In this document: positions 39,001 to 45,000 of the stretch, one piece after another
How positions within the stretch are numbered: the stretch's first letter is position 1
How the letters are laid out: every line of letters begins with the position of its first letter
Assembly: GCF_053078305.1 (NCBI RefSeq)
Contig: NZ_CP166875.1
Length of the DNA: 64,000 nt
Reading direction: 5' to 3' (one strand)
Source: a plasmid
Made by a program: the position numbers

Positions 39001-42000
39001 GGCATTAAAGATAATTACTGGTCGGTCCCCGATTGCATGCCGCAGTTGCCGCGCCACATCTGTCCATGATGGTGCGCCGCAGAGTGCCTGCTCACTGATA
39101 CCATGCACGGCGGCGGCCTGCGCCCCGATGGCGACCGTGGGCTTCAGCCTGGTTTCAAACACCACCTGACCGGCCGCATCGGTCAGGCCGATTTCCAGGG
39201 CTTCCGAGGTATTATCCAGTCCTGTCGTTTCAGTATCCAGAAAGAGTGGTGCCAGACTCAGCCAGTCATATGCCTGCCGTGCCATCCGGCCACTGGTGCT
39301 GTTTAGTCGGGATAAAACGGAAAGCCGCTGGCCAGCCAGCTGTTGTTTACTCGTCAGAGGGCGTTTCTCACGCATCGGAACACAATCTGCAATTCGGTAT
39401 ACAGCGAACCTGCCACCATAAGTATTTTTATACCACTTAACCGGCTCAGCACCGGGGGCTGGCTTCATTCTGAATTCATCGCGCAGACGTCCTTTCGAGA
39501 AACACCTGTCTTCGGCAATCGCCTGCGCACGTCTGGTGACCAGCTCATCATTATTCATGGTTCTTGCATCTCCGTCAGACGTTTTTATATCCGGACAGCC
39601 CCTCTATGGCCACTTCTGTGCAGTATGCAATACTCGCAGGATATACACTTTTCCCCACTGGCTGTCGACCTCATAAACCAGAACAAAATGCGGGTGAATA
39701 ACCAGTTCCCGGGTACCTTCCACACGACCGTTGCGGCCTTTATACGGCTGCCCGGCCAGGCTGCTGGCTGAATAACCAATCCGTTCGTCCAGTTCAATGG
39801 CAGCCATCAGGTTCTGCTCCGCAATGTACTCACGAATGCGCTTCCTGTCCTGGCTGGCCAGCATGGTCCAGAATATCTCCATCATTTACCGGCAACCTTC
39901 CTGCTCATTTCATCCCGCCATGCTGCAGCAGAGGATTCGACCATGTCATGGGGAAGCACATCGCCGTGCTCGAGTTGCTGACGTCCTGCCGCAACCTGGT
40001 CACGGAACCAGGTATTATGCTGCCGTTCAACGGTCTGGCGCATAAAATCCCGGATTAACTGGGAGCCATTACGGTCCATGCTTTTTGCAGCGGCCATAAA
40101 AGCATCCTTCAGTTCAGCGTCGATTCTTAAACTCATATTAACCTGTGCCATTTATCACCTCGTCATTACTACGTATATACACAGTATATAACGATTCAGA
40201 TATCGTCACCAGGATATGCCGCGCCAGCGGCATGGAAGGCGGCGCTCTGTTGTTTCATATGATACCGGAGTAAAACCGCCGAAGCCCGGCGTAAGCCGGT
40301 ACTGATTGATAGATTTCACCTTACCCACCCCCATCCCTGCCAGACCATACCCACTTTCAGCCATGAGAGAGCTTCTGTGCGCGGTCGGAGTGGTCCCGAC
40401 GAGGGTTTACCCGAAGTCGGGGCGTATCTCCGCGTTAGCGGGCCGTCAGGGCCGCTTACGAGCGTGTATTCAACACTTCCAGCGAGAAGACTGACAGCGA
40501 TGATGCTATTTAGTTACAACATTCATAATTAAAAGCGATGTTGTTCCCGCCCTTCGGGCGGGGGCGGCCTCGCTTTTCAGTTATGAGAGGTGAGCACGGT
40601 GCTGCGTTTGTGTGGTGTTTTTATTCCTGATGTCTTTTTGCTGTGGTTTCAGAACGGTGAGGTTCGGGGCCCGCGCGTTAGCGTGGGAGGTGCATATTTG
40701 CTTGTCCACAGGACAGGCACTGAATAGGTTTTCTTTTCAAATGGAAGTAATTAAGTAGTTTAAAGGAAATACAGTACTGGGGTTTAAAAGAAACATTGCA
40801 CCCTGTAACGCCTGCGGCTGGCGCTTTATAGCATTAACGGTTGTAATCTTACGGAGAAGTCCCTTGCAGTTAAATGTGGATAAACAGAATTCCCCGTCTG
40901 TGAGACGTGTTTTGCGTGAAAAACAGGGGGAGCAAGGCGAGCCGGAAGGCAGATGATGAGGCTGTTTTTTGTGTGCTGTGCTGCTTTTTTGTGCGTCGCC
41001 GGGCTTCAGACGTGCGGAAGCCTCCGGCGCAGGCCGGATTATTCAGATGAGGTCAAACTCAGGGTGAGGCTGTGGCCAGCCGTGTGTAGTTGTTGTTCCG
41101 CGACATTATCATGCGTTCCTTCACGCGACGGTCGATTTCGCGCTTCACGGCCTCCAGGCTTCCCCGGAAACGCCCTTCCGCGATTTCACGTGTCAGCTGC
41201 CGTTTCACCAGGGTGACAATGTCCTGACGGGTCCTGCCTGCATCGCGGCGCGCACGGGCACGTTTCATGCCGTGGGACTTAAGCTCTGCCTGATAACTGC
41301 GGAAACGCTCGCGCACAAAACGCCAGGCTCTCGCTATCAGTTCATCCATACCCAGCGCATCCAGCCCCTGCTTTTTGCGCAGCTTGTTTTCCCATTCCAC
41401 GCGGCTGCGGCGTGCGGAAGCCACTGCCTCTTCTGAGATATCAAGTGAGTCAAACAGTGCCGGCGTGAACGTGATGTCGGTCGGGATGTTACAGCCAATT
41501 GTCGGGTCGTATTCCGTCTGGTAGGTTATCAGCCCCAGCTCAGACAGGAACTTCAGGGCACGGGTGGCACGGGTGATGGAGAGTTTCCCGGCCTCAGACT
41601 CCGTCGCCAGTCCGCACTCAATGGCCAGCGTGGTGATGGAGCACTGGACGCGGTTGGCCAGCGGATCGTAGTGGAAACACAGCCCCTGCAGCAGCGCATC
41701 AATCGCCCGGCGGCGCAGCACCGGCGGCATACGCCGGCGCAGGCCGCGCGAACGGGCATACGCCACATGCGCGGCAAAATCAAAACGGGAGGTGAAGCCC
41801 ACCGCCTTTTCCATCAGTTTTTCGCAGAACTTCAGCGTCCCGGCATCTTCACGGGGTGTGAAGACCGGATTCGGGTTCTTTACCTGACGGTATGTGCTTT
41901 CAGTAAATGAGGTCTGGTTCAGGGCCGCCACAAGCTGTCGCTTATGGCGGAAACAGAATGCCGTGCGTTAATGCACTGCGAAGGGTTGAATCTCTGGTAC

Positions 42001-45000
42001 GGTTTCATATATACTTATCCCGTATTCTGTGAGGCCCCCATTATCTTTCTCTGATTCCGCCAAGTTTCGTGGAAAGATGATGGGGGTTTTCCTTTATGGC
42101 CTTCTGAAACTTTTTTCAGCCTTCCGGCCCCGGCAAACTGCCGTCGTTTCTGCCATACATCCTGAATGCCTTATGGCGCATTCTGCCGTTTTCTGGCTTT
42201 CCGGACCGCGAGGATCCCAAAAGCCACTGAATAACGATCCGCAATATACCCCTTTTCCACCGCTTTGAAAAGCCGACACGATTTCTCTGATTTACCAGGC
42301 CTCTCATTAACCACCTAAAAAACGTCGTTTTTTTGAACTATGTCAAAAAAATAGACAATTCCACAAACGATCTTTTATGCTGTGTTTTTCATCATTTTTA
42401 GTAGAAGAGATCGCCTAAAATTTTTAAACGATCTAATCCTCCAGACACCGCACACAAATCAGCATAATATGCTGCTTTATCAAATATAACGATCTATTTA
42501 ACTGCTTATCTTCACTCTTGCCACAGATACATCCTTATGTAATATATTTGCCAGCCATTAATCCTGTTTGCAGGAGTTGTCGGTTTTCGCCCGCCTCGAA
42601 ACCGTCCACAAGGCTTACAAGAGTGCGTAAATCATGTGCCTGTCAGAACTGCAGGCCGGGCTGAACGAGGGTCAGCCGCTGTTTCCGACACATGCTTTAT
42701 GTATTCGCCGTTCACAACAACATCGAAGCCCCTCTGCGGGGATCGATTTTCGCGGAGCGTTCCGGATTTTGAATATCAGTGAATTACATCAACGCAACTG
42801 GTATCTGGCTCAGTACATCCCTGCCGGCAAAAACCGCGAACATCTCTTTTCCTGGCTTTCCGAACAACACGTCCTTCCCTGGACACCCCTGATACTGAAA
42901 AAGGTCCGCCGCACGGATAAAGTCTGTGGTTACCGTCGACATATACACGCCGTGTTTCCCGGTTACTTTTTCCTGAAAGCAGACCCCGAACGCCACAGCT
43001 TCACTCACCTTCGCCGTCACAGTGCCTTTCTGGACTTCGTGAAAATGGCCGGTGAAATCAAAACCGTCAGGGAGGATATCGTTCAGTCTTTGATGAAAGT
43101 GTACCCGGATCCTGCGCTCAATCCGGCAGCCAGGGAGGAGCTGGATGCTGCCTCCACCCTCTGGCTGACAAAAGCGCGTTACCAGTACCTCCTCCGGCTT
43201 GATGCACAGCCTCTGCCGGAGTCGAGGATCGCCCTGCTCCTGCACCTGGTATCTGATGACGGAGCGTTGACATGAAAATTGCTGTCTTAATTTGACGACT
43301 TTTCCCGGCCTTTATGGCCGGGATTTTTTTCCCTTCTGTTTCCACAATGCCCGGCACCGGTGACACCTGAGGGTGTACGGAGAGCGGCTGTCGGGCATTT
43401 TTTCAGGACGCCTTTATGACCATTCTATCCCAGGAAAACCCTGTCATTCTGTTACTGGAGAATATGCTCGAAGCACTCTCCACCGCCCCGGACAACATAA
43501 ACAACGAACGGCGTCGCCGGCGTTACCTGCTGAACTGGCTTGACACTGCCCGTCAGATGCGCGAGTTCAGAGGAATGGCTGAAGAGTTCACTACCCTGCG
43601 AAAACTGCTGGCCACCAATTCAGACATACCGGTAGCAAACACCCTGAAATCACTGCTGGAAAGTGGCAATAACGCAGCATTATACGACCTGTACCGCTTC
43701 CGCTCGGCTCTTTCCGCGTGCAGAAGTCTGGGATGGCAGATTGGCACGTGCGCATGGAACGACCAGCTGCTGAGTGAGACACTTTCCCGTGCGCAAACAG
43801 GTAAACGTCATATCCTGCAGCTGAACAGTACCAGAGACACCTTTTCCACCACGGGCAGAATGCTCAGACCGGTGGCATTTTCATTAATTCATCCGGCATC
43901 CCTCGAATCTTCAGAAGTGGAAGAGATATTCCGGGATGAAGGTTTTATACTCGCGCACGGACGCGAATGCAGCCTGAACGGCAGCGGCAGAAACATGCTG
44001 TCACGCATTCTTCATGTGGGGCATTCAGGTTTACCGAAAGCCGAATGGGGCATAGATCACAGCAATCACCTGTTACACTGAAATACCGGGACAGCCACAA
44101 CGGCAGCCACTCTCCGCTGACTTTTTTTCGCAAATCGCGGTTTGCTGATGTGGATGTCCCATTTTTTATTATCCGTCCTCTCCGGTTGTCATAAAGCGCA
44201 TTCCGGCGTGAGGCTTCTGTTGTTATCATCCCCTCCTGCAGACATCCCCTTGTCTTCTGATGACTGACGATATGCTTCTTCTGACAATTAAAGAAGCGGA
44301 AGCTTCACGCCATAATGTTGTTTGACTGACCTGCCACAGGAGGAAAAATGACACTGACGTTACTTACCGCGTATAACGCACCCTATCTGGCAGCCCTGAC
44401 TTTTGTTCTGCTTACTGGTATCGCTGAACTTATCGCCCTGCTCTGCGGACACTCCCTCTCTTCAGCTATGGATACACCTGATTTACCGGAGGGGCTGACA
44501 GGAGAGGCGCTGGACTGGCTGAACATCGGACGGATCCCCCTGCTGATCGTCCTCTGTATACTGGCAGGTTTTTTTGGTATATCCGGCATTCTCCTGCAGG
44601 GTCTTATTATTCATCTGCTGCAGGCTCCTGCCCCGAACATTCTCCTTGCACCACTTTGCCTGCTGCTGACATGTCCTCTCGTACACCGCACCGGCAGACT
44701 GATTGCCCCCTGGTTACCCCGTGATGAAACAACGGCGCTCACCGAGGAGGCATTCATCGGGTGTATGGCCACCATCACCGGTTATCACGCAGTGGCGGGT
44801 TCCCCCTGTGAAGGTCGCTTCACAGACCGCTTTGGGCAGGTTCATTACCTGTTGCTGGAGCCGGAGGCCGGGAAAGAATTCAGACGAGGAGACAAAGTGA
44901 TTATTGTCTGCCGTCTTTCCGGTTCCCGCTGGCTGGGCGAACTGAATCCCTGGCCGGATGTTCTTTAATCCCGACATATGTAAGCGTCAACGGAGCACCG

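Follow-up and report, generated by a model that had tools for sequence, protein, structure and literature searches.

A repA gene on the plasmid NZ_CP166875.1 (NCBI RefSeq assembly GCF_053078305.1) was initially annotated as the initiator of a RepFIIA replicon that has no recognizable gene for the repressor CopB. We analyzed a stretch of 64,000 nucleotides of this plasmid, which we will call the window. We are highly confident that repA belongs to a complete I-complex replicon of the IncK2/IncZ clade, which is a known natural mosaic and whose normal design does without CopB. RepA, the spacer behind its gene, and the origin, including a DnaA box, resemble those of the IncFII plasmid R100, and the control of RepA synthesis is like that of the IncI complex. 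As the initial annotation stated, repA1 and a DnaA box in the oriR position are present and CopB is missing. The RepFIIA label was not borne out: CopA stays below its threshold, Tap is missing, and DNA similarity to R100 breaks off at codon 13 of repA, upstream of which lies a full I-complex module.

An R100-like initiator and origin beside an IncI-like control region

The initiator gene and the sequences downstream of it are:

41059..41931, minus strand: repA, IncFII-type initiator of the IncK2/IncZ clade (open reading frame of 290 amino acids with a GTG start)
40884..41058, minus strand: spacer between repA and the origin (the CIS position of R1 and R100), colinear with R100
40696..40883, minus strand: oriR-like origin, with the DnaA box TTATCCACA at 40883-40875, followed by an AT-rich tract at about 40770-40725
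40138..40691, no strand assigned: downstream block common to IncFII and IncI replicons, with a GC-rich hairpin at 40540-40568

In profile searches, the product of repA matched TIGR03474 (incFII_RepA) with 565.9 bits (the curated cut-off is 446.9) and PRK13750 with 593.4 bits, which is also above the cut-off. RepA is 87.3% identical to RepA1 of R100 (over 284 amino acids) and just 24% identical to RepZ of the IncI1 plasmid R64 (over 100 amino acids). It is identical to the RepA of pL2-87, and it differs by one amino acid from the RepA of the IncZ reference pO26-CRL125 and by three from that of the IncK2 plasmid pTMSA970. RepA from the window groups with the FII-like initiators of about 290 amino acids that define the IncK2/IncZ clade, not with the RepZ-like initiators of 343 amino acids. 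NCBI names this type of initiator "incFII family RepA", and that annotation alone does not make a replicon IncFII.

The DnaA box TTATCCACA matches the consensus and lies on the minus strand, 176 nucleotides past the stop codon of repA, which is the same distance as in R100. In our alignment, the spacer and origin of the window are colinear with those of R100. The name CIS for the spacer (40884-41058) is one that we carry over from R1, and we take the origin to have the same 188-bp extent (40696-40883) as oriR of R1. The downstream block (40138-40691) may have a priming role, similar to the G-site of R1.

BLAST comparisons to R100 and R64 divide the region into three blocks. Positions 42353-41870, which include the control region, align only to R64 (72% identity). 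Positions 41892-40138 align to R100 (85.6%). Similarity to R64 starts again at position 40691, and positions 40691-40000 align to R64 at 90%. Upstream of position 41892, which is in codon 13 of repA, BLAST found no DNA similarity to R100. Identities by segment are:

repA after codon 13: 86.6% to R100, 53.5% to R64
Spacer and origin (41058-40692): 85.3% to R100, 52.9% to R64
Downstream block (40691-40138): 85.2% to R100, 92.6% to R64

The downstream block is the sole segment that R100 and R64 have in common (83.8% identity to each other). Given these identities, the R100-specific part of the replicon, at about 86% identity, runs from around codon 13 of repA (about 41892) to the end of an oriR-sized stretch (about 40692).

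The nearest plasmids are 98.7% identical to the window over 2.2 kb. They are conjugative plasmids of Escherichia coli that are typed as IncK2/Z, MOBP, and MPF_I, and they share with the window a NusG-family gene that is divergent from repA as well as genes for I-type pili. The Rep proteins of pCD/pYV-type plasmids are IncFII-like. The literature that we found does not state explicitly that the RepA of IncZ plasmids is FII-like; the closest is a remark by Shintani et al. (PMC4379921) that likens the Rep proteins of IncZ to those of pCD/pYV-type plasmids.

The I-complex replicon has been described as comprising repA, a leader peptide (repB) that must be translated for repA to be expressed, and the antisense RNA RNAI, which sets both copy number and incompatibility; the description has no protein repressor, and IncK2/IncZ is one of four repA clades (Phan et al., PMC10286972). 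The replicon of pO26-CRL125 has been stated to be identical to the one in the IncZ prototype pIE545, with RepZ, RepY, and RNAI (Venturini et al., PMC3817090). Since the I-complex type of control never includes a protein co-repressor, the absence of CopB is the normal state of such a replicon and not a loss.

We also noticed that positions 211-396 of another plasmid, pO145_16003 (NZ_AP024925), when compared with positions 41915-42100 of the window, have a control region of nearly the IncZ type, and that the invariant block CCGCCATAAGCGACAGCTTGTGGC is precisely where pO145_16003 switches to a repA of the I-gamma/K1 type. The switch suggests that recombination at the start of rep lets plasmids exchange control regions and initiator genes.

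The control module upstream of repA

Judging from sequence comparisons and folding, the 480 bp upstream of repA are a complete control module of the IncI-complex type. The window has the PK-repZ leader, a 29-codon leader peptide that is coupled to rep, the UUGGCG loop, a complementary tract within a hairpin that occludes the start codon, and a predicted antisense RNA. The features are:

41944..42094, minus strand: PK-repZ (Rfam RF01087), regulatory leader of the rep mRNA (full-length match to the covariance model)
41919..42008, minus strand: open reading frame for a leader peptide of 29 amino acids, of the repY/repB type, whose UGA stop overlaps the start of repA
42032..42093, minus strand: stem-loop I (SLI), the predicted target of RNAI (from the structure line of cmscan and the minimum free energy fold)
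41945..41952, minus strand: putative pseudoknot acceptor UUUCCGCCA, the complement of the SLI loop UGGCGGAA(A) (from complementarity and alignment)
41925..41950, minus strand: predicted hairpin, structure III, CCGCCAUAAG / CUUGUGGCGG (from the minimum free energy fold)
42022..42095, plus strand: gene for the antisense RNAI (Inc RNA) of about 73 nucleotides, a long hairpin and then UUUUCCUUU; the 5' end is putative
41986..42015, plus strand: candidate promoter of RNAI, TTGAAT-18 nt-TATACT (from a promoter scan; putative function)
42243..42271, minus strand: candidate promoter of the repA mRNA, TTTTCA-17 nt-TATATT (from a promoter scan; putative function)

PK-repZ matched with 166.7 bits (the gathering score is 44; E = 1.5e-38) and across all of the model (positions 1-150 of 150). 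As controls, R64 scored 194.5 bits and R100 had only a partial match of 22.5 bits. Conversely, the model for the antisense RNA CopA (RF00042) scored 34.6 bits at 42007-42095 on the plus strand, which is under its gathering score of 60; R100 scored 106.3 bits and R64 had a sub-threshold score of 38.2 bits. Because these reciprocal controls came out as expected, we conclude that the window behaves like an IncI-complex plasmid and not like an IncFII plasmid. We rejected a CopA-type antisense RNA: the score is sub-threshold, as it is for R64, and is explained by the general likeness of the CopA and Inc RNA hairpins.

To describe conservation, we use an alignment of 11 I-complex sequences of the K2/Z, I-gamma/K1, and I1/B/O types, including R64. 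All 11 have a leader of 29 codons that overlaps the start of rep by 13 nucleotides. (In the window, the UGA stop codon is 13 nucleotides inside repA, counting from the first base of GUG.) The leader peptide from the window is identical to that of R64 at 22 of 29 residues, and it has no similarity to the leader peptide Tap of R100.

SLI is formed by two stems (42093-42091 with 42034-42032, and 42086-42072 with 42049-42035), and its loop includes UUGGCGGAA at 42063-42055. The loop motif UUGGCGG is invariant in all 11 sequences. Across these relatives, 95.8% of cells in the alignment are consistent with pairing, as compared to about 50% if the partners are slid by one to three columns, and 5 of the 15 pairs in the main stem show compensatory double changes. 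The window's allele has a C.A mismatch in this stem (42079/42042), which corresponds to a G.U pair in RNAI. For the putative pseudoknot, the six core pairs between CCGCCA (41950-41945) and UGGCGG are invariant in the 11 sequences. The seventh pair covaries: it is AU in five sequences, GU in three, and GC in two, with one non-pair.

In the predicted fold, structure III sequesters the GUG start codon of repA (41931-41929) and has the pseudoknot acceptor in its 5' arm. Its ten pairs are kept in 94.5% of cells across the 11 sequences, and nine of the ten never vary, so the support for this hairpin is from conservation and not from covariation. RNAI has a predicted folding energy of -33.2 kcal/mol (z = -4.87), and none of 200 shuffled sequences folded as well. 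Its hairpin runs into a U-tract, which would serve as an intrinsic terminator. On the mRNA strand, the hexamers of its candidate promoter read AGTATA and ATTCAA, and neither varies among the 11 relatives. Both elements of the candidate rep promoter, GCTTTTCAAA and GGGTATATT, are kept between the window and R64, in a region that is only 72% identical overall.

We propose a mechanism by homology to ColIb-P9 and to IncB plasmids. The rep mRNA, with its long leader, would be transcribed constitutively. The GUG start of repA would be buried in structure III, so that repA could be translated only once ribosomes that are translating the 29-amino-acid leader open the hairpin. The freed CCGCCA tract would then pair with the UGGCGG loop of SLI, and the resulting pseudoknot would activate the initiation of repA translation. 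RNAI, at about 73 nucleotides and from the opposite strand, would bind SLI and block both leader translation and formation of the pseudoknot, and hence the supply of RepA would fall as copy number rises. The scheme draws on work by Asano and Mizobuchi in 1998 and by the Pittard laboratory, both of which are cited in PMC10724649. R1 is not known to use activation by a pseudoknot. The initial annotation's idea that copy control may depend on the antisense RNA alone is most likely correct, in that there is no protein co-repressor, but for a different reason: this is the native design and not a depleted FII system.

Also within the leader of the rep mRNA is a 30-nucleotide block, ACGGCAGAATGCGCCATAAGGCATTCAGGA (42160-42189, minus strand), that is invariant between the window and IncI1 plasmid R64, although its surroundings are only about 72% identical. 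The block forms a GAATGC/GCATTC hairpin, and the loop of this hairpin, GCCAUAAG, repeats the acceptor motif CCGCCAUAAG and contains CGCC.

The absence of CopB and other explanations

We searched for CopB and Tap by comparing the R100 proteins (84 amino acids for CopB, as given in the R100 record, and 24 for Tap) to all six frames of the whole window, using tblastn with a word size of 2 and E values of up to 100. The best match for CopB in the window had E = 0.23 and was at an unrelated site; there was nothing of note within 41932-42700, and matches across the 64 kb were at the level of chance. Tap had no match in the control region. Pfam searches (with E of up to 1 or up to 10) gave no meaningful match for 14 small open reading frames upstream of repA, nor for a 110-amino-acid open reading frame that is annotated upstream of repA in a relative, pSCU-175-1. 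As a positive control, CopB from R100 hit PF10723 at 115 bits. Furthermore, the sense-strand open reading frames in this region vary in length among close relatives, and one of them is truncated in a relative; the corresponding region of R64 has no sense-strand open reading frame of at least 40 amino acids. A divergent CopB was rejected, as tblastn, Pfam, and the comparison of open reading frames across relatives all came up empty. Of the hallmarks of RepFIIA, then, the window has the initiator and the oriR with its DnaA box, and it lacks CopA, Tap, and CopB/RepA2 (PF10723). When the copA-copB region of R100 was aligned and tap and CopA were searched for, nothing R100-like was found between 41932 and 42634, and PK-repZ was found instead.

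The upstream region is not, as first described, only AT-rich non-coding sequence. The 703 bp upstream of repA are 43% GC, as compared to an average of 48% for the window, and only 42320-42530 is strongly AT-rich (33% GC). The region contains the leader open reading frame, the predicted gene for the antisense RNA, and the structured leader of the mRNA. Its mildly unusual points are just two: a rare allele of RNAI, and a conserved cluster of TAGATCG/GATC motifs.

The 429-nucleotide control region has a 100% identical counterpart in just 2 of the 72,556 PLSDB records and is 96.8% identical in the IncZ references. The differences from the IncZ reference are concentrated in the segment that is complementary to RNAI, which is hypervariable (15 of 79 positions, versus 3 of 107 outside it), and RNAI from the window differs from the other alleles that we sampled at 6 to 21 positions. 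By the strict definition of IncZ, RNAI would be identical or nearly identical to the prototype's, and RNAI from the window differs from that of pO26-CRL125 at those 15 of 79 positions. Allelic diversity of RNAI is well known in the B/O/K/Z group (PMC5328535). Five differences in RNAI are enough to make IncK1 and IncK2 compatible (PMC10724649), so the window's allele may have an incompatibility behavior of its own. Taking this further, the RNAI/SLI allele may be a new incompatibility specificity within the IncK2/Z clade and, separately, the TAGATCG/GATC cluster may be an undescribed control of transcription, or one that acts through SeqA and Dam, that stands in for CopB. We consider this combined proposal doubtful. 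If it were true, then the new allele would make the plasmid compatible with IncZ, IncB/O, and IncK2 plasmids.

Another alternative is that the IncZ-type replicon is intact but not leading: RepFIB would set replication and copy number, and the IncZ-type replicon would be a passenger that was left when an F-type virulence plasmid and an I-complex plasmid formed a cointegrate. The window begins, at its first base, with an intact gene for a RepFIB-type initiator (1-978, plus strand, 325 amino acids, GTG start), and the DNA of positions 1-3200 is 99.6% identical to IncFIB plasmids of Shiga toxin-producing E. coli (STEC), where this protein is annotated as "RepB family plasmid replication initiator". 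Further genes in the left 38 kb are the enterohaemolysin operon and one for a trimeric autotransporter, along with a colicin/senB region. At around 38344/38345 there is a sharp switch: the sequence to the left matches STEC virulence plasmids of the IncFIB and MOBF types, and the sequence to the right matches the I-complex backbone (MOBP, MPF_I). IncFIB and an I-complex replicon commonly occur together in STEC plasmids, such as those of O113:H21 and O145:H28 strains. These observations fit with a leading RepFIB, but the I-complex replicon is intact in all its elements, and the iterons and origin of RepFIB fall beyond the window or at its edge. Furthermore, pL2-87 has an identical control region and RepA, and pDW54_2 has an identical control region, and this replicon is the only one that MOB-suite types in the two plasmids, which implies that the IncZ-type replicon is competent on its own. 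We view a leading RepFIB as unlikely, although sequence does not decide between the two replicons.

In neither PLSDB nor a set of 5,426 complete E. coli genomes does any record cross the junction at around 38344, and the F-type/I-complex cointegrate itself may be unsampled. CP027641 was rejected as a relative that spans the junction, as it has an ordinary FII-type repA (86% identity).

A third alternative places an unrecognized control, by a protein or by methylation, in the role of CopB. The relevant feature is:

42366..42495, minus strand: AT-rich intergenic stretch with three AGATCGTT motifs at an exact spacing of 61 bp, and an inverted AGATCG at 42408-42413 (plus strand)

Phased TAGATCG/GATC motifs might be operators for a plasmid or host factor, such as SeqA acting on hemimethylated GATC, that would gate the transcription of rep. 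All three matches to AGATCGTT in the 64-kb window are in this stretch, so that the triplet, with its exact phasing and one inverted copy, is unique in the window. There are six GATC sites in the 709-bp intergenic region, as compared to 2.8 expected. In relatives from the B/O/K/Z group, the motifs are invariant islands amid variable flanks, and a comparable group of AGATCG motifs precedes repZ in R64. However, there is no conserved upstream open reading frame and no Pfam match, the motifs could equally well serve the divergent NusG-family gene (42634-43275), and no protein regulator appears in the description of the I-complex (PMC10286972). Our literature search found no paper on control of repZ by GATC or Dam and no published account of the TAGATCG cluster. 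A hidden regulator of this sort seems quite unlikely to us. Tandem Repeats Finder reported no tandem repeats or iterons in the upstream region, which has only the short TAGATCG motifs. Near the AGATCGTT cluster, at 42233-42240 on the minus strand, we also noticed GGATCGTT.

Finally, a RepFIIA replicon of the R1/R100 type that lost copB, kept CopA and Tap, and runs on antisense RNA alone would account for the R100-like RepA and origin (87% amino acid and 85% nucleotide identity, with the DnaA box at an equal distance) and for the NCBI protein name, but we give it almost no credence: DNA similarity to R100 ends at 41892, CopA scores 34.6 bits (versus a threshold of 60 and 106.3 for R100 itself), Tap is missing, the leader is RepY-like with 29 amino acids instead of 24, and PK-repZ matches at full length. 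A deletion derivative of RepFIIA was likewise rejected, as the alignments indicate that the control module was replaced as a whole.

Several points weigh against our preferred explanation, a complete IncK2/IncZ-clade replicon with I-type control. First, the C.A mismatch in SLI and the 15 differences among 79 positions of RNAI mean that kinetics and incompatibility cannot be read off from the IncZ reference. Second, the ends of RNAI, both promoters, and the pseudoknot are predictions from homology and folding. Third, the second replicon, RepFIB (1-978), could carry most of the replication load. Fourth, the view of IncZ as an IncB-like control region with an IncFII-like RepA comes from the direct comparisons made here and from Praszkier and colleagues, who reportedly described in 1991 that IncZ combines a control region similar to those of IncB and IncK with a RepA similar to that of IncFII.

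We noticed other features around the replicon. Downstream of the origin are yacA and yacB (39604-40151, minus strand; ribbon-helix-helix antitoxin and ParE/RelE toxin) and a gene for a 3'-5' exonuclease (38710-39558, minus strand), in the same order as in pL2-87. The NusG-family (RfaH-like) gene at 42634-43275 on the plus strand, which is divergent from repA, has kept its position in the IncK2/Z, I-gamma/K1, and R64 plasmids that we examined. Its annotated ATG gives a protein of 213 amino acids with the NusG domain beginning at residue 55, and the true start codon may be further downstream. Within the I-complex backbone, a gene for an IS66-family transposase (45010-46623, minus strand, 442.7 bits) sits between an OB-fold (oligonucleotide/oligosaccharide-binding fold) gene and a flotillin gene, which are neighbors in related IncK2/Z plasmids. 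The colicin/senB region has a ColE1-type RNAI (Rfam RF00106; 17466-17571, plus strand) with 59.8 bits, versus a gathering score of 47. This is a third replication-control element in the window, and related plasmids are typed as ColRNAI_rep_cluster_1857.

Implications and comparison with known systems

The replicon type (IncK2/IncZ, I-complex) is already known, and the missing CopB is ordinary. Because IncK2/IncZ plasmids have an FII-like initiator and origin under IncI-type control by RNAI and a pseudoknot, the absence of CopB is expected and is not a sign of decay or of altered copy control. In typing and epidemiological work, the appropriate label for this STEC virulence plasmid is RepFIB plus I-complex (B/O/K/Z-type), with I-type transfer genes, rather than FIB plus FII. 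The replicon also illustrates how modules are swapped where the junctions are conserved, here in the invariant CCGCCATAAGCGACAGCTTGTGGC block at the start of rep and at the end of oriR, which is of modest interest for the reassortment of incompatibility determinants and initiators.

Among known systems, the IncZ plasmids pIE545 and pO26-CRL125 (NC_022996) share with the window their architecture and gene order, the length of the leader, the pseudoknot motifs, and the FII-like origin. The control region of pO26-CRL125 is 96.8% identical over 429 nucleotides, and its NusG-family gene and I-type backbone are alike. It is unlike the window in the RNAI/SLI segment: the 15 differences among 79 aligned positions affect the upper stem and the flanks of the loop, and they include the C.A mismatch. 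It is this segment that determines incompatibility.

Closer still are pL2-87 (NC_025145) and pDW54_2 (NZ_CP038793), which are 87-kb conjugative plasmids of E. coli from a lamb and a calf. Their control regions are 100% identical to the window's over 429 nucleotides, and further downstream their yacAB toxin-antitoxin pair and 3'-5' exonuclease gene are arranged as in the window. MOB-suite types them as having only the IncK2/Z replicon, whereas the window's plasmid also has RepFIB, the ColE1-type RNAI, and the F-type segment of STEC virulence genes.

STEC plasmids of the pO113/pO145 type, like the window, combine RepFIB with an I-complex replicon that is controlled by RNAI, within a single enterohaemolysin-type plasmid that has MOBP/MPF_I transfer genes. 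But their initiator is of the I-gamma/K1 type (RepZ-like, 343 amino acids) instead of the FII-like K2/Z type.

In the IncI1 plasmids ColIb-P9 and R64, the repY-repZ-inc region has the same PK-repZ leader, 29-amino-acid open reading frame, UUGGCG loop, CCGCCA acceptor, and 13-nucleotide overlap as the window, along with an antisense RNA opposite SLI, and it has no CopB. The initiator and origin of R64 are unrelated in practice to those of the window, with just 53% or so DNA identity from repA through the origin.

Conversely, the RepFIIA replicons of R100 and R1 (copB-copA-tap-repA1-oriR) share with the window the RepA1-type initiator, the colinear spacer and oriR, and the distance to the DnaA box. 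The general logic of control is also alike, in that rep is translationally coupled to a leader peptide and an antisense RNA acts by blocking that peptide. Unlike these replicons, the window has neither CopB nor Tap, its CopA score is sub-threshold, and upstream of codon 13 its sequence is no longer similar to theirs.

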